Origin: Candidatus Aegiribacteria sp.
GTDB lineage: Bacteria > Fermentibacterota > Fermentibacteria > Fermentibacterales > JCC-6
Length of the DNA: 64,000 nt
Direction: 5' to 3'
Assembly (NCBI GenBank): GCA_023138735.1
Contig: JAGLOY010000085.1
Span: 6,657 to 70,656, forward strand
Shown here: positions 1 through 14,522 of the stretch, one piece after another
How positions within the stretch are numbered: position 1 is the first letter of the stretch
Layout of the letters: the number at the start of each line of letters is the position of its first letter
Translations under genes and position numbers: made by a program
The notes under the pieces: generated by a model
What the model saw: only the letters and a program-made list of their open reading frames with translations
Database searches by the model: none
What the model was told of the DNA's origin: nothing

Positions 1-349
1 CATATTCATTTAAATCTGTGATACTACGCCTAGTGTCTTTAAATAGAACGTCCATTTCAGTTCCGAGAAATGCCATTGGATATCTAGCCCAAAACACGAA
101 TGAAGGACCAGAAATCTTCTCCTTAATCAGCTCCAATATTGGGACATGTTCATATGGCTTGTATCCAAATACGAATGCAAGATAAGGAAATGATGACTTG
201 ATTGGAGTTTCAAGCTGATTAATAAGGATATCACCATGCTCTTCAAGTGCTTTCGGTATATCGACTGCACGAGCACAAATAGGTGTACACTCAAATGGGA
301 TCTCAATCAGCACTGATCCTTGAATACGAGAAGTTGAAATGTTTTTCAT
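1..349 (-). CDS. hypothetical protein, partial (N-terminal 116 aa; continues past left window edge)
   Basis: I translated the minus strand by hand from ATG at 349-347 (MKNISTSRIQGSVLIEIPFECTPICARAVDIPKALEEHGD...). The frame stays open to base 1. It is absent from the ORF track because no stop lies inside the window. No recognisable motif. Confidence 0.5.
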   Translation of the reverse strand, partial: MKNISTSRIQGSVLIEIPFECTPICARAVDIPKALEEHGDILINQLETPIKSSFPYLAFVFGYKPYEHVPILELIKEKISGPSFVFWARYPMAFLGTEMDVLFKDTRRSITDLNEY

Positions 350-432
350 AGTAGAATAATACTATTCCCAATATGGTAATTATGCAAGTTTCAGAATATG
401 TATATCTATATTGACTGTTCAGATTGATAAGA

Positions 433-455
433 TAGACACACCTATGGTGTGTCTA
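433..455. repeat. perfect 10-bp inverted repeat (tagacacacc-tat-ggtgtgtcta) in a 0.7-kb non-coding AT-rich spacer
   Basis: Read directly from the sequence. It is flanked by the direct-repeat words ctatattga(c/t)tg and aagatag. Confidence 0.6.
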
Positions 456-919
456 TATTGATTGAGCAGTAAGATAGTATATATCCAATAATAGCAACTA
501 TATAATGGATATATGATATGTATCTACATTAAGACTAGCCTTGTATCTTAGGTTGTACGATAGGCACTATACGCAAGGTAACCAATAAATTAGCCCCGTA
601 TGGTGTTATATGTCATTTGCAACTGAGAAAATCTACCATCAAGATAGACTCACATCAAGTGAAGTAATGAATTTCTACTCAAAATCATGAAGCATGATCA
701 TTATTCAGCGTATCAAGATATCGAAATTAATCACTAATAACATATAATGTGTTATGCAGTGGTGGACGCTTTTAGAACTCATTCAATAACTGAAAATATT
801 ACCTGAACTCTATACTTTCGAACCTCTGGAATGTACGCTGTGTAAGTCGGTTAAAAACAAGGTTTCCAGTCAATATTCTAGCTTTGTGTAGTATTTATAT
901 TTGATGGCCTATCATTACT

Positions 920-949
920 TTGACATTGCTATGTATGACTCTGTATCAT
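920..949 (+). promoter_or_regulatory. candidate sigma70-type promoter for the 1057 gene, overlapped by two 14-nt direct repeats
   Basis: TTGACA (920-925), an 18-nt spacer, then TATCAT (944-949). Direct repeats tatcattact(t/c)tga at 910-923 and 944-957 overlap the -35 and -10 hexamers. AT-rich context raises the false-positive risk. Confidence 0.35.
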
Positions 950-1056
950 TACTCTGATCCGGGATTGTAGTGTAATCGGTTATAAGAACCTCTTCAGACT
1001 TCTCTACCTATTACTTTGAATCCAAATAGCGCTCAATAATCATATGGAGGTGGAGC

Positions 1057-2433
1057 ATGAGCCAAAGACTGACCAAACTCATTGGAATATCATATTCTGA
1101 GTTCACAAGCATTGCTTCTGAACACAAAGAAATCCACCTTAGGCCAGCTCGACTTATTCCTATGCACAAGCCTGGTGATGAAATGGCTCTTACATCCATC
1201 TTCCTCAGTTCTCTGAAGTTAATCAAGGAATTCAGACGAGAGATATCATCAGCTGTCAGTATGAGCTCATCAGGAAGCATTCATCTTTTCACTGAAGTAA
1301 CATTCGAAAAATACCCAGATAAGCGAGTAGATGGTTTGATGCTTGTCGTTAGGGGTAACAAGATTAGTGATGCTGCCCTCTTTGAGCTGAAGAATAAGAA
1401 CAATGACCTTGATGATTCTCAGATACAGGATTACATTGGGATTGCGAAGTACTTCGCTATTCCTAGGATCATTACAGTATCGAATCAGTTTGTTTCAAAA
1501 CCAACTCAATCACCCTTGAACGTCAAACTCCCAAAGGATGTTTCTCTATATCACCTATCCTGGTCATACATACTCACCATTGCCCGACTACTTCTCTTTG
1601 ATAACAACATGAATATCAACGAACCAGATCAGGTAGAGATCATGGAGGAAGTAGTTAATTACCTTGAGCATAAGCAGTCAGGTGTCTGTGGCTTTACGAG
1701 CATGAAACCAGGATGGAAGGATGTCGTTCAGAAAACCAATGCTGGAGCTCCACTAAGATTCGATGCAAATGATGTTGATGAAGCTGTGTGCAGTTGGCTT
1801 CAGGAAGAGAAGGACATGGCTCTGATCCTGAGCAGAAGGCTTGGACAATTTGTTGAGTCTGGTGAGAAGAAGTTTAAAACAGATCTGCAGGGACGAATCG
1901 ATAATGAGAAGAAAGCCCTTATTGAGCAGAAATATCTCTTATCAACTCTGTCAGTTGACGGTGCTGTATCGAGTATCAGTGTACGAGCAAATTTAGATCG
2001 ACGGAATATTGTGATGTCAGTTTCCCTTAATCCCCCTCAAGACCGGAAAACAAGAGGTCAAATTAGCTGGCTCCGGTATCAACTTAAACGATGTCAAACG
2101 AAGAATCCAGATCTCTTTGAATCGCTTGCAAAGGAAATCAGGATAGGCATTGGTATCAAGTATTCCAGTAAATGTGAGAGGGTTTCAATAGAAGCTCTTG
2201 AAGATGTTTGGTTGAAACTAAAGGATTCAGTTATCAAAAGCTTCACGATTCTCCAGGTGAAGGATCTTGGGAGAAAATTCAGTAGCAGGACAAGCTTTAT
2301 CACAACTATTGAGAGTATGCTCCTCGATTATTATGAAGGAATCGTACAGCATTTAAAAAGGTGGGAGAAGCCTGCTCCGAAAATATCTAACAAAACGCTT
2401 CTAACTGATGAGGATAACCTCGAAGAATTATAG
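1057..2433 (+). CDS. hypothetical protein with N-terminal PD-(D/E)xK (restriction-endonuclease-like) motif set
   Basis: GGAGG RBS 7 nt upstream of the ATG. Motifs GDE...RVDGLMLVV-x13-ALFELKNK...QIQDY fit the E...D-x(n)-ExK nuclease core. The ~280-aa C-terminal region is unrecognised. Confidence 0.6.
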   Translation: MSQRLTKLIGISYSEFTSIASEHKEIHLRPARLIPMHKPGDEMALTSIFLSSLKLIKEFRREISSAVSMSSSGSIHLFTEVTFEKYPDKRVDGLMLVVRGNKISDAALFELKNKNNDLDDSQIQDYIGIAKYFAIPRIITVSNQFVSKPTQSPLNVKLPKDVSLYHLSWSYILTIARLLLFDNNMNINEPDQVEIMEEVVNYLEHKQSGVCGFTSMKPGWKDVVQKTNAGAPLRFDANDVDEAVCSWLQEEKDMALILSRRLGQFVESGEKKFKTDLQGRIDNEKKALIEQKYLLSTLSVDGAVSSISVRANLDRRNIVMSVSLNPPQDRKTRGQISWLRYQLKRCQTKNPDLFESLAKEIRIGIGIKYSSKCERVSIEALEDVWLKLKDSVIKSFTILQVKDLGRKFSSRTSFITTIESMLLDYYEGIVQHLKRWEKPAPKISNKTLLTDEDNLEEL

Positions 2434-2805
2434 CCTTTCTATACTCTATTGAACTTAACTACCTCGTGTTGAAGGTATTTCGAACACTGGTTCTGTTTGC
2501 TGATTAACAGCATGCTAGTAAGTGCGCCTACTAGTTGAATGAGGAAATTGGATATTGAGGGGATTCGGAATGCCTAACGGATTTACTGGCCATACTCCAA
2601 ATTGCGATTATTGGCATACAAGTATTCCCAGTTAGGTTTTTCACTATATTGCAATGTGAATTGTTTTCAGCACATTCAGATTCTAGACGGAGTGTTAGGC
2701 AAATCGATTCATCCGAAGTGAAGATAGTGTTTGATGTGAAGTGGAGCGTAAAACAATGTATTTCAATATCCGAGTGTTCCCTCTAAACATCCATGGAATT
2801 TCTCG

Positions 2806-3339
2806 ATGAACAATGATTTTGATGCATTCGCAGAGGATTTACTTGTTGAACGCAATCCCAGACCACTTTTCATAGTTGGCGCAGCAAAGGTCGATAATCT
2901 ACTTTTCCAGACTCTCACCAAATACCTATTGGATAAGACAGCGAAATCGAAAAATCATGATGAATTGCTTGAGGGAGATAGACCACTTTCGACTTTCAGT
3001 GCGCGTATTAAATTGTCTTACAGGTTAGGCTTAATTGACTCTTCACTATTCAAGACTCTTGAAAAGTTACGAACTCTCCGGAATATATGCGCTCATTCCA
3101 TTGATTTCAGAGTATCTAAGAGTCCTGTGCGTGAACACATTAAGGAGCTTCGGAAACAACTAGGCAGTCGGCAATCATATCACCTTACTAGAAAGCGTTA
3201 TTTCGACAATGAAGAACTATCCGGCATCGAAGAACTGCAGTGCTTGCTTTTAGTCCTATGTGTTCTCCTTGAAGCTATCCGGAGAAAAACAAGGAGAACG
3301 AGAGCAGGTCTTCACACCCGTACAATCTCATCTAAGTAG
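2806..3339 (+). CDS. MtlR-like / DUF4145-like HEPN domain protein
   Basis: LSTFSARIKLSYRLGLIDSSLF...LRTLRNICAHS. The helix pair resembles the MtlR family, and RNICAH fits the Rx4H HEPN signature. Confidence 0.7.
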   Translation: MNNDFDAFAEDLLVERNPRPLFIVGAAKVDNLLFQTLTKYLLDKTAKSKNHDELLEGDRPLSTFSARIKLSYRLGLIDSSLFKTLEKLRTLRNICAHSIDFRVSKSPVREHIKELRKQLGSRQSYHLTRKRYFDNEELSGIEELQCLLLVLCVLLEAIRRKTRRTRAGLHTRTISSK

Positions 3340-3355
3340 TAGATCGGAGGAATAA

Positions 3356-4465
3356 ATGGTACAAGAATCAGCTTCTATCCTTAGAGTACCCGTTGTAAGG
3401 TCTAACATTCTCGGTGTTAAAGTATACAGAGGCTTTGCGAAAGTATGTGATTTAGCGGATATTTCCAATGCGGATATTTACGATCAAAAGAATAATCCTC
3501 TGGGAACACAGCGCGATTTGAGTCCTGCTCACGCACGAGAAGCATATGAATATGTAAAAACAAAAGATTTTGGTTTTTGGCCAGAAGTATTTCTTTGTGT
3601 ACGTAATAGAAAGTGTATAACATATCATGTGTTGTCAGATGAATTAGATGATCTTGGTATACTTGAAATTGATGTTGCTGCAGCAACTTCAGGGGATACC
3701 ATCGCCATATCCCGTGTTGATGGGAACCATAGACTTCACTATGGAGATGGAGTGGAAAAGGGTTACGTGCGAATAACTAAACTTGTCTCATTTTGCCTAG
3801 CATATGACCTAAATCGCGAAGAAGAGATCCAACTATTCAAGGACATTAACAAGAACCAAAAAGCGATGAATACGAGTCACCTTGATGGCATTGAAGTAAG
3901 ATTGACTTCGGAAGATGAACTCAAGAAAAGAAAACCTGAATTGTATATTGCTCAGCGCCTTCATAGGGATCCAACGAGTCCACTTCATGATCGAATATAC
4001 GAAGGTGGCAAGAAACCCGTTGGAGTTGACATCCCGCTTCGTGGATTGAAGTCAGGTATTCAATACATGCTTTCTCGATCAACACAGCTACCGAGGTTAC
4101 TTGATTCTGAAGCGCAGTATAGGGTAATCCGCAATTACTTTTCGTCAGTCAAGGAATGGCAACCGAAGGCTTGGTCAAATCCAAAGGAGTATATCTTGCT
4201 TCGAGGTGCAGGGCTGTGGGCTGTTTGTTTCCTTGGAGCGCATGTTATTGATCGAGCACTGGTTCAAGATAAGTTCGATATTGAGTATATGCTAGGCATT
4301 TTAAGATCAGGGAGGGAGTGGGATTGGGGGCGTAAAGGGGATTTTGTTGGTTTCAGCGGAAGAGGTGGAGCACTGGAGATCAGTAATCGAATCGCCCGCA
4401 AGCTTGAAGATGAGAACAAGATGTCCACTGATGACTTGTTTAGAAGTATTATGTCCTCCGATTAG
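3356..4465 (+). CDS. DGQHR-domain (DndB/DpdB-like, ParB/Srx fold) protein
   Basis: GGAGG RBS 5 nt upstream, and only 17 nt after the HEPN gene. Motifs GTQRDLSPAHAREAYEYV and ISRVDGNHRLHYG (a DGQHR variant). Confidence 0.75.
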   Translation: MVQESASILRVPVVRSNILGVKVYRGFAKVCDLADISNADIYDQKNNPLGTQRDLSPAHAREAYEYVKTKDFGFWPEVFLCVRNRKCITYHVLSDELDDLGILEIDVAAATSGDTIAISRVDGNHRLHYGDGVEKGYVRITKLVSFCLAYDLNREEEIQLFKDINKNQKAMNTSHLDGIEVRLTSEDELKKRKPELYIAQRLHRDPTSPLHDRIYEGGKKPVGVDIPLRGLKSGIQYMLSRSTQLPRLLDSEAQYRVIRNYFSSVKEWQPKAWSNPKEYILLRGAGLWAVCFLGAHVIDRALVQDKFDIEYMLGILRSGREWDWGRKGDFVGFSGRGGALEISNRIARKLEDENKMSTDDLFRSIMSSD

Positions 4466-5030
4466 ATACCGGAACACTTACGTTGCGGGTTTCATCAGGA
4501 CCAAGAGGGTGAAGATGCTGAATATTTATCACATAAAGAGCTTGGAATACTTGATGAAGATCACGAACGAGGATGGAGAGCTACAATGAGGTACGTCCCC
4601 ACACCGCTCTGAATGGCTTACTGGAGTCTATCTATCAGGAGTAATCACACAGGACACTGGCAAACCTTTGAGTGTATTAGTTGATTGAAAAGCGCACATA
4701 CATTGTTTCACTAAATACGGCCACTCCCATTACATTGAGGGCAAGTACGCCCTGCTGGACCTAGCATCATAGATTCCTTGATGAGCTCATATGTTGCGGA
4801 TTCGATCATACCTATTTTCAATCGAAGTCTTAGCCCTGTAAGTAGGGTGCCTTTACTGTAGATAGTGATGTAATTTACTAACAATAATTCGATTGATATG
4901 TAATCTATCAGAAACGCTATTTAAGGACAAAACAGTTAGTAGCATGATAATACCAATATTAGATGAGATAATCGATTCTGAGTGGTTTATGGTGCTTCAG
5001 CAACTGTTGAGATTCTTGTGCGTTATCTGA

Positions 5031-6113
5031 TCATAGCGATAGAATATCTCGAATTATAAGATAAGTATAGATGAAGTATCTCTCAGCCTCTTCGCGGGAG
5101 TATATCTCAGAATGAGAACCCTTTTGTGCAGCATGGAAGATTGCATCAAGTCTGTTCCCAAGATACTCAAGAGATGATCCAACGATTTCAATGAATCGGT
5201 TTGAGGAACTTCGATCCTCAACGTAGCACATTATGCGATTAATGTAATTCTCCGGACCAATCGCAATCGATTTTCCATCAGAAGAGGTGCGATAACCTCT
5301 TTCAGGAGGATAAACCTTATCAGCTAACATCTGGAGTAATCTTCGCATTGAGTGGACTGCGTTAGACCAATGTTCTCGGTTATCAATTTCGAGATTCTCG
5401 AGTATTGCTATGAGTTTTGGAATCATCCCTGGGATACACTCTCTGATCAACTGATCTGCAGAAAAGAATATGTGCCAAAGTGTATCGTTTATGAGTAGTT
5501 GTGTGTGTATTTCATTGTTAATAATCACTTCATTAGACACCATTTCAAGGACATACTCTCTGGCCGAATATGTGCCTAAAGTCACATCAACAATTTCATC
5601 TGGTATATAGATTTCCCAAGAATTATCCTTTACAATCCTAATTGACCATCCAGTCATAATCTCCGCAATGTGCAGAATTTCATTTAACTGAATTAATGGG
5701 CAATGTGGATCATCCTCGAAATTACCTGGATTGACTGATGGATTCTCAAGATTTTCCTTGTAAACAATTGAAGCAACTTCAACAAGACGGACTGCTGCTG
5801 CAAGAAGGTTTTCCCAGTTATCTAAGCAGAATAATCCAAGAATGGTCGGTTTTATTAGAGCTCTGCCCGATCTATTCTCTCCAGGACTCCTATTGCATTG
5901 CTCAATTAACCTTGGATCCGTCTTAAGTAATTTTTCAACATATGGTCGATCCTTTACTCTAAGAATGTACTCTTTCCTGGAAATATAATCGGTGTTTTCA
6001 AGCCAATATTGCCAAGCAATTTCAACAGCATTTCTCTCAGTATCTGTTAAGAACTTTCTGATCTGATCCAGTTTCTCACAAGTGGGTTCAATTTCCTTAT
6101 TTATCATTTTCAT
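5031..6113 (-). CDS. hypothetical protein; C-terminal region with possible HEPN-type Rx5H motif
   Basis: 360-aa ORF. LEYLGNRLDAIFHAAQKGSHS (R-x5-H) sits in a helical C-terminal third. No other motif recognised. Confidence 0.5.
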   Translation of the reverse strand: MKMINKEIEPTCEKLDQIRKFLTDTERNAVEIAWQYWLENTDYISRKEYILRVKDRPYVEKLLKTDPRLIEQCNRSPGENRSGRALIKPTILGLFCLDNWENLLAAAVRLVEVASIVYKENLENPSVNPGNFEDDPHCPLIQLNEILHIAEIMTGWSIRIVKDNSWEIYIPDEIVDVTLGTYSAREYVLEMVSNEVIINNEIHTQLLINDTLWHIFFSADQLIRECIPGMIPKLIAILENLEIDNREHWSNAVHSMRRLLQMLADKVYPPERGYRTSSDGKSIAIGPENYINRIMCYVEDRSSSNRFIEIVGSSLEYLGNRLDAIFHAAQKGSHSEIYSREEAERYFIYTYLIIRDILSL

Positions 6114-6146
6114 CCTTGTTGTTAATTATAACCTTCATTAGTATTC

Positions 6147-6160
6147 TAAGAATATATTCT
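6147..6160. promoter_or_regulatory. 14-bp perfect palindrome aagaatatattctt in a divergent intergenic region
   Basis: Read directly. It lies between the start codons at 6113 (-) and 6238 (+). AT-rich palindromes can arise by chance. Confidence 0.25.
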
Positions 6161-6237
6161 TCACAAGTCTATCTCGTCTAATCAATTATAGATAGCACTA
6201 CATTAAAAGAATACTTCTCGATAACGTTTGGACACTA

Positions 6238-8439
6238 ATGGGTGCAAAGAGAATCAAACCATCAGACTATAATCAACTCGCTTCCTTAAGGGACTTCAAA
6301 TGGATTGGTCCATTTCCTAGAACGACAAAGATTAAAACTACTTGGGAATGCGAAGCGGGGCATCAATGGGAGCAGCACTATAATGCAATTCAACAAGGTA
6401 GAGGTTGTCCACATTGCGCTGGATTAGTACCGAAAAACAAGGATGATTATGAACTCCTTGCTAGAGAACGTGGATTTAAATGGCTCGGTCCTTTTCCTAA
6501 AAGTGCTCATGCAAAAACCGAGTGGCGTTGTCCTGATGGACATACCTGGTATGCAACATATAGTAAGATCCGAATGGGAAGAGGTTGTCCGGTCTGTGCT
6601 GGGCATATGCGTAAAACTCCGAGAGAATATCACGAACTTGCTAAATCCCTTGGCTTACAATGGATTGGTACAGAGGTGCAGAACACGAACACATGTACTC
6701 GATGGAAATGTCCCTGTGGATTTGAATGGGAAGCAACATTCAAGAGTATTCGTGTTGGAGCTGGTTGTCCTGATTGCACTCAGAAAAGACTTTCAGATGA
6801 AAAACGAATAAAACCTGATCAATACACTCAGCTTGCAGAGTATCGAGGAATAATATGGCTTGGTCCTGAAGTACTATCTACAAGTGAGAAAACAAAATGG
6901 AAATGCAAGCAAGGACATACTTTTGAATCTCCATATAACTCAATTCAGGGAGGTCATGGTTGTCCAATCTGCGCAGGGAACCTTCCCAAAACTCTTGAAG
7001 ATTATCACAAACTTGCGAAGGATTGCTCTCTTGAGTGGTTAGGACCTAGTTCAGAGAATACGAGAACGAAGACTAGATGGCGATGCAAGAATGGTCATGT
7101 ATGGAAAGGATCATATGGAAGTGTTCTTAGGAGTCGAGGCTGTCCACTGTGTGCTATAAAGAGAGCAGCTGCAGCTCGACGATTCAAAAATAAAGAATAT
7201 CATGCGTTGGCTAAGGAAAGAGGATACAAGTGGCTTGGTCCTGAAGTCCTGAACACTCAATCAAAGACACGATGGTTATGTCCAAACGGACATGCAATTG
7301 AGACTACTTACTCTCATTTGCAGCAAGGAGGGGGTTGCGTAATTTGTTTAGGACTTGAGCGAAAGACACCAGATGATTTTAAAGCCCTAGCAGAAGTGCG
7401 CGGCTTTTTGTGGCTAGGTCCGGTAGTTCCTAATGTTCACACAAAGACTCAGTGGAAATGTTCTCTTGGGCATATTTGGGAAACCTCATTTAGCTCGATT
7501 CAACAAGGGCATGGATGTCACAAATGTGGAATTGAAAAAAGAACTGCTTTGAGACGAAGAAAACCTATTGATTACAAACACCTCGCTTCTGAACATGAGC
7601 TGAAATGGTTGGGACCAACTGTAAAAAGTACTGGCACTAAGACAGCTTGGGAATGCGCAGAAGGGCATATATGGGATGCACCATATAGCATGATAAGTGG
7701 TGGTCACGGTTGTCCTTACTGTGCTGGATTAGCTCCAAAGATAAAAGCAGACTATAAAAAACTAGCAAGAGATAAAGGTTTTGAATGGATAGGTGAGTAT
7801 CCTAGTAGAGTGAAGCTTAAAACTAGATGGCGCTGTCAAAATGGACACGAATGGGATGCACCGTATGCAAATCTTGATAATGGTTATGGTTGCCCACATT
7901 GTGCTCAACGTGCACCAAAAAAACCTGAGGATTTTAGGACCTTAGCAGAAAGTAGAGGGTTTACTTGGCAAGGTCCAATTGTTAGGGGAAATAGTGCTAA
8001 AACAGAATGGATGTGTCCTGAAGGACATACATGGAAAGCAAACTATAACAGTATCGACCAGGGAAGTGGGTGTCCAATCTGCCAGGATATGGTTAATGGT
8101 GTTCGAGTTTCCAACCTTCAGCGGAAATTATGTAGAACACTTAATGGAAAGCTCAATCTTAAGGTTGGAAGATACAGTATTGATATAGCCATTATTAGAG
8201 AAGGGAATCTGATCGCAATTGAGTATGATGGCTGGTATTGGCATGGGAATAAGACTGATCAAGACAATAGAAGAGATAGGAAGCTTATTGAAAAGGGTTG
8301 GCGTGTCCTCAGAGTAAAATCTAATCAAAGCCTTCCGACAAGAAACCAGCTTAATTCAGCAATAGATTCCCTTATTGAAGGTGAGGATTATGCTGAAATC
8401 ATATTGGACGATTGGGGAGTCGGAGCTATACTACATTAA
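6238..8439 (+). CDS. protein with ten tandem zinc-ribbon repeats (DUF4379-like) fused to a C-terminal Vsr/DUF559-type PD-(D/E)xK endonuclease domain
   Basis: Ten units of the form (D/E)Y..LA...G..WLGP.....KT.W.C..GH.W...Y..I..G.GCP.C. The tail RYSIDIAIIREGNLIAIEYDGWYWH...DNRRDRKLIEKGWRVLRVKS matches the DUF559/Vsr core. Confidence 0.8.
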   Translation: MGAKRIKPSDYNQLASLRDFKWIGPFPRTTKIKTTWECEAGHQWEQHYNAIQQGRGCPHCAGLVPKNKDDYELLARERGFKWLGPFPKSAHAKTEWRCPDGHTWYATYSKIRMGRGCPVCAGHMRKTPREYHELAKSLGLQWIGTEVQNTNTCTRWKCPCGFEWEATFKSIRVGAGCPDCTQKRLSDEKRIKPDQYTQLAEYRGIIWLGPEVLSTSEKTKWKCKQGHTFESPYNSIQGGHGCPICAGNLPKTLEDYHKLAKDCSLEWLGPSSENTRTKTRWRCKNGHVWKGSYGSVLRSRGCPLCAIKRAAAARRFKNKEYHALAKERGYKWLGPEVLNTQSKTRWLCPNGHAIETTYSHLQQGGGCVICLGLERKTPDDFKALAEVRGFLWLGPVVPNVHTKTQWKCSLGHIWETSFSSIQQGHGCHKCGIEKRTALRRRKPIDYKHLASEHELKWLGPTVKSTGTKTAWECAEGHIWDAPYSMISGGHGCPYCAGLAPKIKADYKKLARDKGFEWIGEYPSRVKLKTRWRCQNGHEWDAPYANLDNGYGCPHCAQRAPKKPEDFRTLAESRGFTWQGPIVRGNSAKTEWMCPEGHTWKANYNSIDQGSGCPICQDMVNGVRVSNLQRKLCRTLNGKLNLKVGRYSIDIAIIREGNLIAIEYDGWYWHGNKTDQDNRRDRKLIEKGWRVLRVKSNQSLPTRNQLNSAIDSLIEGEDYAEIILDDWGVGAILH
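6265..8088 (+). repeat. in-frame coding tandem repeat array, 10 units of about 60-65 codons
   Basis: I counted ten GCPxC-type knuckles in the translation. The units are diverged at nucleotide level. Long (65-aa) and short (60-aa) units alternate in units 2-7. Confidence 0.8.
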
Positions 8440-8604
8440 GCTATGTTACTTGCGTATGGAATATGATAAGTGCTGAAAGAATCGAATATTCAAAGCTATT
8501 ATGAGTGAAATCCAGGTGATCGATTAGTGAATGTTCAACGGTTCACTGTGATATTGTTTGATAGCCATTCTTGAAGAAATCCTGAATCTTGAAAGGATAT
8601 ATCA

Positions 8605-10470
8605 TTGAGAACGAACCATAATAATTCAGTTAGAGACTATCTGATACACTATTTATCTTTAGAGAATCCGGGATTTGCAGTATTGCTTAAGGGGCAATGG
8701 GGTATTGGTAAAACATACTTCATAAAAAACATGCTTGATAGTCTAGAAGATTCGACAAAGTATTTGTATATCAGTCTATATGGTATTCTTTCATATGAAG
8801 AAATAGCGCTAGAGATGTTTCGGCAATTACATCCAGTTCTATCTTCAAAGGGAATGGTCACTGCAGGAAAATTCGGCCAGGTTATTATGCAGGCTGTTTT
8901 GAAAGTAGATGTTGTTGAGAAAAAACTATGGAAGAGTAAGTCAAACTCAATCCCAAAGTACATGATGGATTCGGGTCGTCTATTGGTGTTTGATGATCTT
9001 GAGAGATGTTCGATACCACTGATGGATATACTTGGGTACATCAATCAATACGTAGAATGTCAAGGATGCAATGTGCTAATAATTGCAAATGAGGAAGAAA
9101 TTGTTGATCGAGAAAAGGCAAGAAATACGAATGGTTGTGCAAGTGAGTATCGAAGAATTAAGGAAAAGATTATTGGTAAAACCTTCTTAATTCATCCGAA
9201 TACAAGTGAAGCTCTTGAAGCGTTTATTGAAAGTATCAAATCCAAGCAGGTTAGGGACATGTACGAAAGAAGTATTGATTCTATAAGAATGGTCTTTAAT
9301 GATTCGGATCATAACAATTTGCGGTTGCTTAAACATGCGTTACTTGATTTCGAAAGACTGTATCTTTGCTTAAATGCAGAATTACAGAATAATGAAAAGT
9401 TATCAACTCACCTTTTAGAAGTACTGATGGTGTTATCATTTGAATACAATTCAGGTATCATTCAAGAGAAAAATATACTTGAATTTCGTTCATCATATAT
9501 GCTTAATAGGATTGGGCATAGCGACGATTTTGATGAAACTGAATATGGTAAAATAGTGATTAAATATTCGAGTGATAGCTTGCATGATATTCTTATGGAT
9601 GGTGATCTTTGGGCTGAGATAATTGTTCATAACATTATTGATCCAGATCGTATAATCGGAACTTTAGAAAAGAGTAAATACTATTCGCACGATTTACAGC
9701 CGAGTTGGGTAAAACTATGGAGTTATAATGATCTTATAGAGGAAGAATTTAGTAAATATCTTAACATCGTCATTAAGGAATTCACCGATATGGTGCACGA
9801 TGAAATTGGTGTTGTAAAGCATATCTCTTCTCTACTACTGAGGTTAGCAGATATTGGTTTGAATCAACAACCCAAAGAAGAGATACTTAGCATATCGAAA
9901 GCTAACGTCGATCATCTGGCAGAAATTGGAAGGCTTATGTCTGAAAATAAGAATAGAATATTCGATGATGATGAGTCATGGGGAGGATTAGGATTCCTAG
10001 GCAGAAACTTAGAAGAGTTCAAGGAGCTATGTAAATATATTCACGAAGTGGAATCGGATGAGCAAAAAAGAAAATTACCTGGAGACGGAAAAGATCTCCT
10101 TGCGTTAATGACAGTAAATCCACAGCAATTCTATGATCACATTACGTTCGGAAATATTGGAGATGCTTTATATTATGAAATTCCGATACTAGCATACATT
10201 TCTGTAAAGGATTTCGTAAATTCGTTTATACAACTTAATCCAGAGATTCAAAGAAGAGTTATATATAGTTTGAAAAAGAGGTATAAATATCCAAATATCA
10301 ATAAAGAATTAAGATCAGAACAGAAATGGATATCAAGTGTATGCAATGAACTAATTAAGTATCGAGATTCCTTAGATGATGGTTTAACAAGACATAGACT
10401 TGAAGTTTTCACTATTCCGCAAATGCAGGAAGCAGAGGAATTACTAACATCATCATCAAGTGCGCTGTAG
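8605..10470 (+). CDS. KAP-family-like P-loop NTPase (no transmembrane insert)
   Basis: TTG start with an AAGGA RBS. Walker A GQWGIGKT, Walker B LLVFDDLER, and a long helical C-terminal region. No strongly hydrophobic segment lies between Walker A and B. Confidence 0.7.
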   Translation: MRTNHNNSVRDYLIHYLSLENPGFAVLLKGQWGIGKTYFIKNMLDSLEDSTKYLYISLYGILSYEEIALEMFRQLHPVLSSKGMVTAGKFGQVIMQAVLKVDVVEKKLWKSKSNSIPKYMMDSGRLLVFDDLERCSIPLMDILGYINQYVECQGCNVLIIANEEEIVDREKARNTNGCASEYRRIKEKIIGKTFLIHPNTSEALEAFIESIKSKQVRDMYERSIDSIRMVFNDSDHNNLRLLKHALLDFERLYLCLNAELQNNEKLSTHLLEVLMVLSFEYNSGIIQEKNILEFRSSYMLNRIGHSDDFDETEYGKIVIKYSSDSLHDILMDGDLWAEIIVHNIIDPDRIIGTLEKSKYYSHDLQPSWVKLWSYNDLIEEEFSKYLNIVIKEFTDMVHDEIGVVKHISSLLLRLADIGLNQQPKEEILSISKANVDHLAEIGRLMSENKNRIFDDDESWGGLGFLGRNLEEFKELCKYIHEVESDEQKRKLPGDGKDLLALMTVNPQQFYDHITFGNIGDALYYEIPILAYISVKDFVNSFIQLNPEIQRRVIYSLKKRYKYPNINKELRSEQKWISSVCNELIKYRDSLDDGLTRHRLEVFTIPQMQEAEELLTSSSSAL

Positions 10471-10694
10471 TTATTTGTTGATTAAGTACGGAGACATAGA
10501 TCAGGATCGACTTTATGCTATTGGAGCAATACGGGGAGGGAGAGGAATAGCCCTCCAGTTTGCAGCAAGGGACAACTTCTATCAAAGATTGCTTAATGAG
10601 TAATATCATAGACACTTTGAAGAAGAACTGGATTGAACGAAATAAGTGTTAAGTTGGATATCGAAAGTTGATGCCGTAAAGAAGGGAGTTATCC

Positions 10695-11267
10695 TTGCGA
10701 AAAGTCTTAAGTAAGGTTATTTCTCATCCTGTTATTTCTGGTCTTATTGTATTTGTCATTGGTCCTTCACTAATCGCTATCATTAAATGGGGATTTACAG
10801 CAGTAGTCAATTGGATATTTTCAATTCCGGAGTTGCTATTCTCAACCATAATCTTACCCATATGGTTATTCATCATACTTTTAATAACTTCAATTACTGG
10901 TGTTGTCTTTGGTTTACACTCATTGTTGAGCAAGAGGAATAGAATAATTGAAGATTACTTATGGGATACTTTCTTTGGAGTTACTTGGAGGTGGTACCAG
11001 AGTGATCTATATGGTTTGATAAATCTTAAGGCGTTTTGTCCTGAACAAGATTGCGATATGGAGCTTAAATTCATTCGCAAGATGATAACAGCTTCTGGCA
11101 GACCACTCACCTATTATTCCTGCCCTAATTGTGGGAAAAAAGATCTACTATTTGATGGAACTTTGAGCGACCTTAAAAAACATATTGAGAAATTAATTGA
11201 GAGAAATATTCGAGAAATAGAGAACGGGATTTCCATAAACAAGATAAGAGTGAGAGAAGCATTATAG
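10695..11267 (+). CDS. small membrane protein with C-terminal zinc ribbon
   Basis: TTG start preceded by GAAGGGAG. Residues ~10-75 form 2-3 hydrophobic helices (VISGLIVFVIGPSLIAII, LLFSTIILPIWLFIILLITSITGVVFGL). These are followed by CPEQDC...CPNCGKK. Confidence 0.6.
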   Translation: MRKVLSKVISHPVISGLIVFVIGPSLIAIIKWGFTAVVNWIFSIPELLFSTIILPIWLFIILLITSITGVVFGLHSLLSKRNRIIEDYLWDTFFGVTWRWYQSDLYGLINLKAFCPEQDCDMELKFIRKMITASGRPLTYYSCPNCGKKDLLFDGTLSDLKKHIEKLIERNIREIENGISINKIRVREAL

Positions 11268-11293
11268 AGAGAAGTATTCTCAAAGGGAGGATT

Positions 11294-12187
11294 GTGCCAG
11301 ATCATATAAGCATGTGTACTAATTTCCTTGGATTAGTGGATACATTTGAAAATACTATAATGAACCCTAATAATACTATCATGCTTGAATTAGATAGATA
11401 TAAGATTACTATAAAGCAAGATAAAAATGTAGTTCGAAACCAACCAAGATATTTTCAGGATCGTACTGCTATAACCTCCAAAGTGATAGTACAAGGAGTA
11501 ACAGCAAGTGCAGTTCAGAATGCAAACCGTATTCGAGATCGTATTTTAGAACTGCTATCTTTCATATCAATGTCATATGTAATCCCTAGCATAGTTCAGT
11601 TCCCTCCGGGTACTAATATTGATAGCAATGTACCCAGAGGATATGCATGTTATTACAAACCAGTAATAGAGATAAGGGATGCGAAGATAGTCAAAGATTT
11701 TATAGAGCAAGTATGGACAAAATACAATAAGATATACCGTAGAAGGAAATTACATGAAGTAATGGAATATCTAGCGATATCTGATTTTCCCCACCAACCA
11801 ATTGAATCGAAACTAGTTTTAGTGATTGTAGCTCTAGAATTCTTGAAGACAACTTATGCTCATTCCAGTGGAATTCCATTTATTTCGGGCAGCTTTAGAA
11901 AAGTAAGTACACCCCCCAAGGCGAACATTAAGCGCGAACCAAAGTATTCTTTTGAAGACCTTCTTACGAAGATGCTAATGGATGCAGGAATGCCTAAGGG
12001 TATTAAGAGGATAATTAGACTGCGTAACGAGCTTTTCCATGCTGGGCTTACAAACATTTGCAGAGAATCGAAGATGAAACGATATAATAGAATTCACGAT
12101 ATCATTAGAGAGTATCTCTTACGGATAATGGAATACAAAGGAAATTACATCTCTTACTCGGATCCAGATTCTTTTAAGCATATATAA
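11294..12187 (+). CDS. HEPN-motif protein (Rx4H), otherwise uncharacterised
   Basis: GTG start 3 nt after a GGGAGG RBS, 27 nt after the preceding gene. C-terminal IIRLRNELFHAG matches the HEPN Rx4H signature. Confidence 0.6.
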   Translation: MPDHISMCTNFLGLVDTFENTIMNPNNTIMLELDRYKITIKQDKNVVRNQPRYFQDRTAITSKVIVQGVTASAVQNANRIRDRILELLSFISMSYVIPSIVQFPPGTNIDSNVPRGYACYYKPVIEIRDAKIVKDFIEQVWTKYNKIYRRRKLHEVMEYLAISDFPHQPIESKLVLVIVALEFLKTTYAHSSGIPFISGSFRKVSTPPKANIKREPKYSFEDLLTKMLMDAGMPKGIKRIIRLRNELFHAGLTNICRESKMKRYNRIHDIIREYLLRIMEYKGNYISYSDPDSFKHI

Positions 12188-12735
12188 TTTGTGATATTTG
12201 ACTCATTTAGGATTAGATAATACATGTCACTTCAATTCAGGCAAAAGAAAACTGACAAAGAGTTCAAGAAATAAAACGACAATACAGTTTCCCATTACAT
12301 TGGGGATGTAATAGTATGAATTCACGGGTATTTTGATACACACAGAGAACTGGGCTTAAGATGCTGAGATCTATATAATTACTCTACATTCAATGAATTT
12401 CACTAATATATCCTTACTAATATGCGTGAAGAACGACTGTATCTATAGCAACTCCATTGAATTACACAAATATCGTATTATGCTGCTCCAATTATATCCA
12501 GGTATGCTTCCGCCATCGATGATATCCACTCTACAAAAGGGTTCCAAATACGTTCAGTAAGGGGTACCAAAGTTCAGAGTTTAGAACTCAATCCCAGTAC
12601 TGGCAACGCTTCGAAATACTTCCATCACGGGGTCGCCTTTGACGATACGGGACCGCCTTTGTTATCATCACTATAAGTACCGGATCAACAAGCTGGAGCT
12701 TACCTGATAGGGCTGAAGCCGGAGGGAGGCTGTAA

Positions 12736-13089
12736 ATGCGTATTTATGGAGTGTGGGCGGTGCTTTTAATACTTCCTTTAGCCGCCGGTGCAGCGGGGAT
12801 TGTAAGCACGATAGATGCGCCGGACAACGATATCATCGGCCTTGCGTGGCAGGACGGTCACCTCTGGGCGGTGGACAGGATGTCGGGATGGGCCTACGAG
12901 CTGAACCCCGGTGACGGAAGTGTCCTGTTCAGTTTCTACCCGGAGTACTCAGCGACCTACAATCCGTACGGATTGGCCTGCGGGAACGACACACTGTTCA
13001 TCAATTACGGCAAAGCGGTTGCCGGAGGAGTCCCAAGGATGTACGACACTTCGACCGGAGACTACCTTGGCGCTGTCGAGTTCTGTTGA
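12736..13089 (+). CDS. secreted beta-propeller repeat protein, N-terminal part (ends at an in-frame TGA)
   Basis: GGAGG RBS, signal peptide MRIYGVWAVLLILPLAAGAAG, and blade-like repeats (GLAWQDGHLWAVD, GLACGNDTLFINY). Same reading frame as the next ORF. Confidence 0.6.
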   Translation: MRIYGVWAVLLILPLAAGAAGIVSTIDAPDNDIIGLAWQDGHLWAVDRMSGWAYELNPGDGSVLFSFYPEYSATYNPYGLACGNDTLFINYGKAVAGGVPRMYDTSTGDYLGAVEFC

Positions 13090-13110
13090 GGGGGCGGCGT
13101 CCCATCGGCG

Positions 13111-13497
13111 ATGGGAATGGCCCACTTCGGAGAGTACCTCTATCTGGCAGGTGAGTACGAGTACATATGCGGCAGAGTCGAATACACGTTCAGTGACAGC
13201 GTTGAAATTTATCTGGAGTTCAACGGAGTATCCGGAGACATCTTCGACATCGCTTACGATTCTGGTGATATCTGGCTCGCCAGGGACCACCCTGACCAGC
13301 CCCTGCAGAAGTTCAATATAACCGGTACGGTAGTGGATTTCGTACCGTCCACCGTCATCCTCAGAGCCCATGGTCTCACGATGGATGACGAAGGATTCCT
13401 CTGGGTTTCCGACATGGAGACGGACCTCATCCACTGTATATCGCTGGAAACTTCCACCTCACCATCCACCTGGGCGCGTATCAAGCTGCTGCACTGA
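13111..13497 (+). CDS. beta-propeller repeat protein, C-terminal part (same frame as 12736-13089; no RBS of its own)
   Basis: The blade repeats continue (GMAHFGEYLYLAG, IAYDSGDIWLARD, GLTMDDEGFLWVSD). Frame identity checked arithmetically: 12736 and 13111 are both 1 mod 3. Confidence 0.5.
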   Translation: MGMAHFGEYLYLAGEYEYICGRVEYTFSDSVEIYLEFNGVSGDIFDIAYDSGDIWLARDHPDQPLQKFNITGTVVDFVPSTVILRAHGLTMDDEGFLWVSDMETDLIHCISLETSTSPSTWARIKLLH

Positions 13498-13598
13498 CAG
13501 GGAAAGCAATACAGGTGGGAAATGATCATTCTGAAATATCGAAGCTATTGTACAGTACTTTGCAGACCTTTATCTTCGGGAGTACTGGGAGGTATTGA

Positions 13599-14522
13599 AT
13601 GAAAACTGTTCGGGTACTTTCACTGGTTATCCTTTTCACCGCAACATATTCCGTATTTGCCGGTTCTCTTCCATTTTCCCGCTCCGGTCTGATCGATACC
13701 CCCACTGCATCCATCCTTCATCACACTCAGGTCAAACTGGGAGGGGCTGTCACCGCGTTCAGCTACCAGAATGCGGACAGCACTACTGAAAGCGATTTTG
13801 CGCTAGGAGGCTACCTTGAGTTCGGTCTTTTTGAAAGAGCTCAGTTAGGTGTTACATGGCTTGGAAATGCTGGAATTTCCGGCAATGTGCAGGTGCTCGC
13901 TATTAGAGAGACTACGACAATCCCTGCAATCGCAGTCGGATGTCAGAATATCATCGGAGAAGAAAATTACGAGTTCTTCCGGGATACGGAAGACAGTCTT
14001 TACAGGTATGAGGAATCACAGAGTTTTTCTGCGTATCTGGTACTTACGAAGAACCTTGATTATTTCTCCGGAATACCTATCTGCATCAACCTGGGTTACG
14101 GTATCGGAAGGTTCAGGCAGGGTGAAAATTCGGATTCCGACGGAATATCAAATCCCTTCCGAGGTCTTTTCGGCGGTTTTGATTACAATCCAACCAGAAA
14201 CGTATCACTGATGGTGGAATGGGATGGAAGAGATGCCAATCTCGGTGCGGCGTTTACAATGAACGATAATGTCCGCTTTCTCGGAGCAGTTGCAGAATTT
14301 GAACAGCTTGCGCTGAGTAACAGAGACCTCTCGGATGTCATGCAGAATGTCAAATTCAGCCTTGGAGTGGAGATCACTCTCGGACCCTTCCTCAACGCTA
14401 CAACTCTCGAATCCTACAGTGAGCTTACTCAGCGTGAAGCTGATGACCTTCTCCGTAAGCTTGAGGAAATAAGATCGCACGCCAGAGAGGATATCGAAGA
14501 GCTGAAGCACGATATTCCCTGA
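13599..14522 (+). CDS. putative outer-membrane beta-barrel protein (possibly YjbH-like)
   Basis: GGGAGG RBS, signal peptide, SGLIDTPTA N-terminal motif, alternating beta-strand pattern, and a coiled C-terminal tail. Confidence 0.55.
   Translation: MKTVRVLSLVILFTATYSVFAGSLPFSRSGLIDTPTASILHHTQVKLGGAVTAFSYQNADSTTESDFALGGYLEFGLFERAQLGVTWLGNAGISGNVQVLAIRETTTIPAIAVGCQNIIGEENYEFFRDTEDSLYRYEESQSFSAYLVLTKNLDYFSGIPICINLGYGIGRFRQGENSDSDGISNPFRGLFGGFDYNPTRNVSLMVEWDGRDANLGAAFTMNDNVRFLGAVAEFEQLALSNRDLSDVMQNVKFSLGVEITLGPFLNATTLESYSELTQREADDLLRKLEEIRSHAREDIEELKHDIP

Follow-up and report, generated by a model that had tools for sequence, protein, structure and literature searches.

Transmembrane (TM) helices inserted in the P-loop domain are a classical, though not universal, feature of KAP-family NTPases, and Tmn, a membrane-inserted YobI/KAP-like NTPase, is a single-gene defence. 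KAP NTPases with uncharacterised C-terminal regions have been shown to act as single-gene anti-phage proteins, with protection requiring the C-terminal region as well as Walker B (10.1101/2025.10.07.681051), and 145 single- or multi-gene candidates were assembled as PDC systems by "guilt by embedding" (Payne et al., 2024; 10.1101/2024.01.29.577857). On the side of the HEPN proteins, ApeA is a ligand-activated anticodon nuclease, switched on by deoxydinucleotides that bind in a pocket where its N-terminal domain meets the HEPN domain, DUF3644 is described as a HEPN domain (10.1101/2024.01.29.577857; PMC3710099), and in the MAE_18760 family the HEPN domain is preceded by a novel, mostly beta-strand domain of ~121 amino acids (aa), MAE_18760-NTD1 (Anantharaman et al., 2013). 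Here we analysed a stretch of 64,000 nucleotides (nt) from Candidatus Aegiribacteria sp. (contig JAGLOY010000085.1, positions 6,657 to 70,656), hereafter the window, in which three adjoining genes encode a KAP NTPase, a small membrane protein with a zinc ribbon (G) and a 297-aa protein with a HEPN-type motif (H). The original prediction for this locus had proposed an undescribed tripartite conflict module, in which G would supply in trans the membrane element of a soluble KAP sensor and H would be the HEPN effector.

The three genes were not found together in other genomes. When the hidden Markov model (HMM) of the KAP family was run on 57 H-family loci, no KAP gene was recovered except in the window and in its duplicate contig (leaving ~48 distinct other loci), and the H HMM recovered no H gene in the 78 KAP homologue loci (0/78). 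G was likewise absent from all 78 KAP loci, and phmmer searches with G at E<=10 gave no match in any H or KAP locus. Since KAP, H and G do not travel together, we read them as neighbouring independent units: the three are likely to be independent genes that share a defence island gained by horizontal transfer, rather than parts of an obligate unit, and the new composition that had been claimed is adjacency rather than a system. That the three genes adjoin on the same strand, with similar low GC and a 224-nt gap without canonical terminator between KAP and G, is what favours the joint action of a KAP sensor, a membrane element in trans and a HEPN effector; given that neither H nor G accompanies KAP in any of the 78 loci, that no other H locus contains KAP, that the KAP family is already recognised as a single-gene candidate and its neighbours vary, and that this family as a whole has neither TM helices nor a recurrent downstream membrane partner, we consider such a system most improbable.

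The assignment of the first gene to the KAP family was confirmed by Pfam KAP_NTPase (PF07693; 85.5 bits vs a cut-off of 20, E=5.1e-24) and phrog_4740 (E=1e-89). All three PADLOC models of the single-gene candidate PDC-S49 matched the protein end to end (E=7.2e-188, 1.2e-167, and 8e-90), the first of them over residues 1-614 and profile positions 1-616 of 624, so that the KAP component cannot be called undescribed. Its homologues, at least 1,214 proteins of 595-680 aa, occur in Vibrio, Aeromonas, Shewanella, Marinomonas, Xanthomonas, cyanobacteria and others, the nearest being ~40% identical to the window protein; a further 74 homologue loci came from viral or prophage contigs. Among 27 homologues, G30, W32, G33, G35, and K36 of Walker A and F129, D130, D131, E133, and R134 of Walker B were invariant. 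No TM-grade helix was detected in the protein, the Kyte-Doolittle score over 19-residue windows peaking at 1.33 in the whole protein and at 0.99 in the segment between the Walker motifs, where the absence of a hydrophobic insert had been correctly noted. A single-sequence KAP scan of the genome contigs gave one distant locus, sequence and profile searches of the PDB with the KAP protein returned nothing meaningful, and a literature search by the name PDC-S49 found nothing. The full-length PDC-S49 match, the many homologues and the KAP defence proteins already reported indicate that the gene is not novel; as judged from these profile matches, it is a divergent member of the catalogued candidate family PDC-S49.

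With PDC-S49, the window protein shares the full-length HMM match, the ~620-660 aa length class, the solubility and the variable neighbours of a single-gene unit; nothing structural separates them, and the window copy has just ~40% identity to its nearest relatives. EF_KAP and its metagenomic relatives are similarly single genes with a KAP NTPase domain followed by a large C-terminal region (10.1101/2025.10.07.681051), but the EF_KAP model has two TM helices, of which one lies within the NTPase domain, whereas the window protein has none. Tmn resembles it in being a single-gene defence and in having a P-loop NTPase that belongs, broadly, to the same class; an identification as Tmn was rejected because PADLOC returned PDC-S49 models only, and no Tmn model, at E<=0.1, and because no TM helices follow Walker A. 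On the analogy of KAP NTPases with a validated defence function, the NTPase at the N-terminus would be a nucleotide-driven switch for the helical C-terminal region of ~370 residues, which would act as the specificity or effector part.

The neighbours of the KAP homologues varied over the 78 loci, as expected for a PDC-S49-type single-gene unit. Three of the neighbourhoods had no genes in common, the flanking genes were heterogeneous across the loci from viral or prophage contigs, and no recurrent downstream membrane partner was observed in the loci surveyed. These variable neighbours and the full-length PDC-S49 match lead us to consider KAP as a stand-alone gene. A recurrent upstream partner was limited to a divergent subclade of ~595-600 aa, 24-28% identical to the window protein, in which a gene of ~345 aa consistently lies directly upstream, overlapping or abutting it at -23 to +11 nt (viral contigs L088, L094, L097, L098, L100, L101, L105, L107, L108, L110, L120, and L130). 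This arrangement suggests that, on prophages, the PDC-S49-like family includes a variant of two genes.

The third gene turned out to have many homologues. A word-indexed search gave just 3 homologues of H and understated the family; when 1.84 billion representatives were searched exhaustively with a profile, this recovered 546 clusters at E<=1e-3, 165 of them at E<=1e-30; these are representatives at 50% identity and the family thus comprises at least 546 clusters. Nearly all members are ~295 aa long and were matched over their full length, and the start of H is supported by homologues beginning with MPDY or MPNY. The protein carries IIRLRNELFHAG, in which lies its RNELFH motif. In an alignment of 107 sequences the only invariant columns were E182, R244, and H249; conservation of >=90% extended to N245 and a small number of structural residues, and a motif of the form R[NDHQ]xxxH was present in 120 of 122 members. 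Scans of H against Pfam, PADLOC, NCBIfam, and PHROGs gave no significant match, and its precomputed label in the protein collection was "PF27216 YopA_C (faint)". No homologue was found in viral contigs and phage records; the plasmid search gave one match, on the complete Rubrobacter tropicus plasmid, where the gene is monocistronic and flanked by genes on the opposite strand. On these family searches, H is a member of a large, populous, unnamed and mostly solitary family.

The AlphaFold (AF2) model of H built from the family alignment had a pLDDT of 94.5 and a pTM of 0.92, and divided the protein into a beta-rich N-terminal and a helical C-terminal domain (Table 1). The latter comprises six predicted helices (130-147, 153-163, 170-191, 220-230, 238-250, and 257-278), with the R/N/H motif within helix 238-250 followed by the long last helix, as in the all-alpha bundle of HEPN domains. 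Foldseek searches with H against the PDB (two models) and BFVD (second model) gave no match at E<0.4, and for the N-terminal domain no structural relative was found in either database. HepT HEPN toxins were the sole family recurring in both PDB searches, as a weak resemblance (8xdj_C and 7bxo_F, target-normalised TM score of 0.50, probability 0.14-0.23, E about 3-5). Sub-threshold Pfam matches among 20 family members pointed in the same direction, to HEPN_RiboL-PSP (6 members, best 1e-3), DUF3644 (6 members, best 4e-4), HepT-like (4) and HEPN_Cthe2314 (3). With hhalign, the H family and an MtlR-like HEPN protein of the same island aligned over the motif alone (E=0.3), and sequence and profile searches of the PDB with H returned nothing meaningful. 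The (near-)invariance of E182, R244, N245, and H249, the weak Pfam HEPN matches and the HepT resemblance make the HEPN reading plausible, and we regard it as quite likely that H is a HEPN protein. Of the HEPN assignment originally made for this gene, the Rx4H motif thus held up, being invariant and placed in a predicted helix that fits the HEPN bundle, while the profile and structure matches stayed below threshold.

The H family fits the long-known theme of abortive-infection (Abi)-like proteins with an N-terminal domain (NTD) and a HEPN domain. Like ApeA, AbiJ, EC042_2821/DUF3644 (HEC-08) and, functionally, PrrC/RloC, it has the design of a solitary NTD plus HEPN-like protein repeatedly embedded in restriction-modification (R-M) operons and defence islands, with the R-N-x3-H motif in the penultimate helix of a C-terminal helical domain and a family-specific N-terminal domain distinct from known domains. 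It differs from these families in that H had no significant match to any of their models in PADLOC, Pfam, NCBIfam, or PHROGs, and from PrrC and RloC in that it lacks their ATPase domain. ApeA, at about 580 aa, is mostly helical and built of three domains (N, Mid, and HEPN), in contrast to the 297 aa and the ~125-aa beta-rich NTD of H; membership in ApeA was rejected on the absence of a PADLOC match, the roughly half size and the other N-terminal domain, a weak ApeA_NTD1 match having been obtained in 1 of 20 H-family members. The MAE_18760 family, with its beta-rich NTD, resembles H by description only, and on this comparison of descriptions the H family may correspond to that class.

We examined the surroundings of H in 27 distinct loci with >=600 nt on both sides. 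In 13 of the 27 there was no same-strand gene within 60 nt. Over the H-family loci in general the neighbours were diverse and variable, and one context recurred, an operon with the order SNF2/HKD-type helicase, DUF4391, H, type III methylase, optionally ORF6N/Fic, and type III Res; H lies between DUF4391 and the methylase in L013, L018, L029, L030, L034, L035, L037, L050, and L061, which make 8 distinct loci as L030 duplicates L037. On annotated plasmids, the same operon without H has DUF4391 directly before the methylase with gaps of 16-37 nt, and since these two genes adjoin in the canonical operon, we consider H to be an insertion into it. Embedded defence genes of this sort have been described in many HEPN families (PMC3710099), and Payne et al. 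made use of the same pattern (10.1101/2024.01.29.577857). Other genes near members of the H family encode a DUF7008 (PglX-like) protein, GmrSD_N, REase-ARP, a reverse transcriptase and integrases.

This helicase(SNF2/HKD)-DUF4391-Mod-Res operon was also observed to be a hotspot for embedded genes (L061 2001-12837; also L037, L018, and L034). Between the methylase and Res it carries an ORF6N and Fic pair matching PADLOC PDC-M59A/B, which the plasmid operons lack together with H. At another locus (L004 2-7769), the H-family gene is separated by 28 nt and 19 nt from its two flanking genes, encoding upstream a coiled-coil protein that ends in a FLIHDSPRE-type motif and downstream a 594-aa protein, with RVT_1 further downstream; this may be another multi-gene defence context.

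By analogy with characterised HEPN proteins, H would be a solitary sensor-plus-effector protein that normally acts alone. Its beta-rich N-terminal domain would be a putative sensor of the trigger, gating the C-terminal domain on infection; the protein would dimerise through the helical domain, E182, R244, N245, and H249 forming a composite RNase site, and, once triggered, it would cut tRNA, rRNA, or mRNA and halt translation in the manner of abortive infection. Its repeated embedding in the type-III-like helicase-DUF4391-methylase-restriction operon suggests a back-up role there, comparable to that of PrrC or other HEPN proteins embedded in R-M systems.

G, lying between KAP and H, is indeed the small membrane zinc-ribbon protein that had been described: its N-terminal ~80 residues are hydrophobic (2-3 TM helices; residues ~8-80 strongly so, with a maximal Kyte-Doolittle value of 2.67) and are followed by a C4 zinc ribbon, to which belong the only four Cys of the whole protein, and by a charged C-terminal helix. 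The start codon of G has an AGGGAG box 6 nt upstream. G had no family match in Pfam, PADLOC, NCBIfam, or PHROGs, the PDB sequence search gave only generic zinc-ribbon noise, and in a collection of 5.8 billion proteins the word-indexed search retrieved only the protein itself. As far as such searches go, G is a lineage-specific orphan. The spacers are 224 nt from the KAP stop to G and 26 nt from the G stop to H (225 and 27 nt in the original prediction, which was right about the adjoining same-strand genes and the GGGAGG box before H), and because of this short second gap, G is probably co-transcribed with H. The GC-rich hairpin GGAGGG-n10-CCCTCC in the KAP/G spacer had been taken as a sign that only the membrane/HEPN pair might form a tight unit. 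It is present, also in the minimum free energy (MFE) fold, but has no T-tract and was not called as an intrinsic terminator by the terminator scan; the fold of the whole spacer was unremarkable (z = -1.17).

This narrower pair was not conserved either, the H-family genes having variable or no tightly linked neighbours. It could still be that G and H work as a two-gene unit restricted to this lineage, with KAP independent, in which the membrane-anchored G would tether, sense for or restrain H as a HEPN-like RNase; the 26-nt spacer on the same strand with a separate ribosome-binding site (RBS) for H and the matching composition of both genes agree with it, as does the presence of a zinc-ribbon plus 2-TM protein upstream of the closest H homologue (P0002, 41% identity) and of an SPFH/Band_7 membrane-associated protein upstream of another. 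We consider this unlikely, for G has no homologue anywhere searched, the protein upstream in L001 orders its domains otherwise than G and shares no sequence similarity with it, and the upstream neighbours of H are otherwise mutually unrelated, about half of the loci having none. An enrichment of membrane proteins upstream of H was also considered and rejected: they occur in about 8 of about 30 loci, no more than expected from any proteome. That G would act within such a unit as an antitoxin or as a sensor of membrane perturbation appears similarly doubtful. Returning to the independence of the three genes, the role of G, if any, would be accessory, as the H family in general does not need it. 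We tentatively propose, as a possibility somewhat short of the probable, that H represents an undescribed family of stand-alone HEPN-type RNases with a structurally orphan ~125-aa beta-rich sensor, which inserts between DUF4391 and the methylase as a PrrC-like back-up, G being a lineage-specific adaptor.

Table 1. Positions in the window of the KAP, G and H genes, of their domains and motifs, and of the neighbouring genes of the island.
Feature	Position	Strand	Basis
Soluble KAP-family P-loop NTPase, 621 aa, TTG start	8605..10470	+	Pfam, PADLOC, PHROG profile matches
Walker A GQWGIGKT, KAP residues 30-37	8692..8715	+	Motif; conserved in homologues
Walker B LLVFDDLER, KAP residues 126-134 (LLVFDD 126-131)	8980..9006	+	Motif; conserved in homologues
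GC-rich hairpin GGAGGG-n10-CCCTCC in KAP/G spacer	10535..10556	+	Sequence; present in MFE fold
Orphan protein G, 190 aa, TTG start	10695..11267	+	Open reading frame (ORF); hydropathy
Zinc-ribbon Cys ligands of G, C115, C120, C143, C146 (CPEQDC ... CPNC)	11037..11132	+	Sequence
Protein H, 297 aa, GTG start	11294..12187	+	ORF; GGGAGG upstream
N-terminal domain of H, beta-rich with one long helix, residues 1 to about 125-129	11294..11680	+	AF2 model
C-terminal helical HEPN-like domain of H, residues ~130-297	11681..12187	+	AF2 model
RNELFH motif of H, R244/N245/H249, putative HEPN catalytic Rx4H	12023..12040	+	Family alignment
Low-GC island acquired by horizontal transfer, rich in defence-type genes	1..~12500	.	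GC, GC3, gene content
458-aa protein	1057..2433	+	ORF
177-aa MtlR/DUF4145-like HEPN protein	2806..3339	+	Pfam
369-aa DGQHR/DndB-DpdB-like protein	3356..4465	+	TIGR03187, PADLOC
360-aa protein	5031..6113	-	ORF
733-aa zinc-finger/restriction endonuclease (REase) protein	6238..8439	+	DUF4379, DUF559, PHROG matches

The island that carries the three genes is foreign and horizontally acquired, and its defence character, implied by the original prediction, is real. GC is 0.34-0.43 over the island vs ~0.50 in the remaining 51 kb of the window, and the gene-wise GC at third codon positions (GC3) is 0.29-0.41 in the island vs 0.47-0.66 in the flanking host genes, KAP, G and H having very similar low GC and GC3 values of 0.30-0.33. 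All three ORFs are much longer than chance predicts in DNA of 35% GC, and two of the three genes (KAP and H) have many homologues. The left edge of the island lies outside the 64-kb window, no tRNA is present in the window to mark an island edge, and an Rfam search of positions 1-14000 gave no match.

The window opens with ~1 kb of AT-rich DNA (35% GC) in which none of the six frames is coding, and the 458-aa and 360-aa ORFs of the island have no match in Pfam, PADLOC, NCBIfam, or PHROGs. The 177-aa MtlR-like HEPN protein (Pfam MtlR, E=2.5e-6), with the motif LRTLRNICAHS, and the 369-aa DGQHR protein (TIGR03187, E=2.3e-28; PADLOC DpdB, E=1.8e-11) are encoded by a tight pair with a gap of 16 nt and form a possible two-gene defence unit. 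Directly upstream of KAP, the 733-aa protein combines nine treble-clef zinc-finger repeats of DUF4379 (E=1.2e-53) with a Vsr-like endonuclease domain (MTES_1575/DUF559) at its C-terminus, and has strong matches to PHROG endonucleases (phrog_559, E=2e-90). Its pairing with KAP was considered and rejected, no homologue of it being found in any KAP locus.

Several observations weigh against our reading of the three genes as independent members of a defence island. Their shared strand and composition, and the 26-nt gap between G and H, may reflect co-acquisition and co-transcription. The promoter and terminator scan, itself at background level, gave no terminator or convincing promoter between KAP and G. 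The orphan status of G was drawn from word-indexed and local searches, and many H loci are on short metagenomic contigs, so that distant partners could be missed. The HEPN membership of H is not statistically established (Pfam sub-threshold, Foldseek E >1, hhalign E=0.3), and the defence role of the PDC-S49 and H families has candidate status only. These last two points also speak for the alternative that none of them are defence genes, H being a non-catalytic helical protein with the R/H motif in another role such as nucleotide or ligand binding, in line with HEPN-like proteins that regulate without catalysis, MtlR among them (PMC3710099), and KAP serving housekeeping or mobile-element maintenance. 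We hold this to be quite improbable, because the genes lie in a low-GC island beside DGQHR, HEPN/MtlR-like, and REase-type genes, because H is embedded in R-M operons and found near BREX-like, GmrSD, reverse-transcriptase, and integrase genes, because KAP homologues are common on prophages, and because precisely E, R, N, and H are conserved throughout the H family.

The idea of a new three-component system, with a membrane element acting in trans to a KAP NTPase, thus fails comparative testing. What the locus provides instead is a divergent further gene of PDC-S49, a family common on prophages, next to a gene of the H family, which is the modestly new part, with at least 546 clusters, a confident predicted fold, three invariant residues and the embedding in restriction operons. 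Both KAP and H fit established themes, those of single-gene NTPase defences and of HEPN effectors in R-M systems, and the gain is incremental rather than conceptual.

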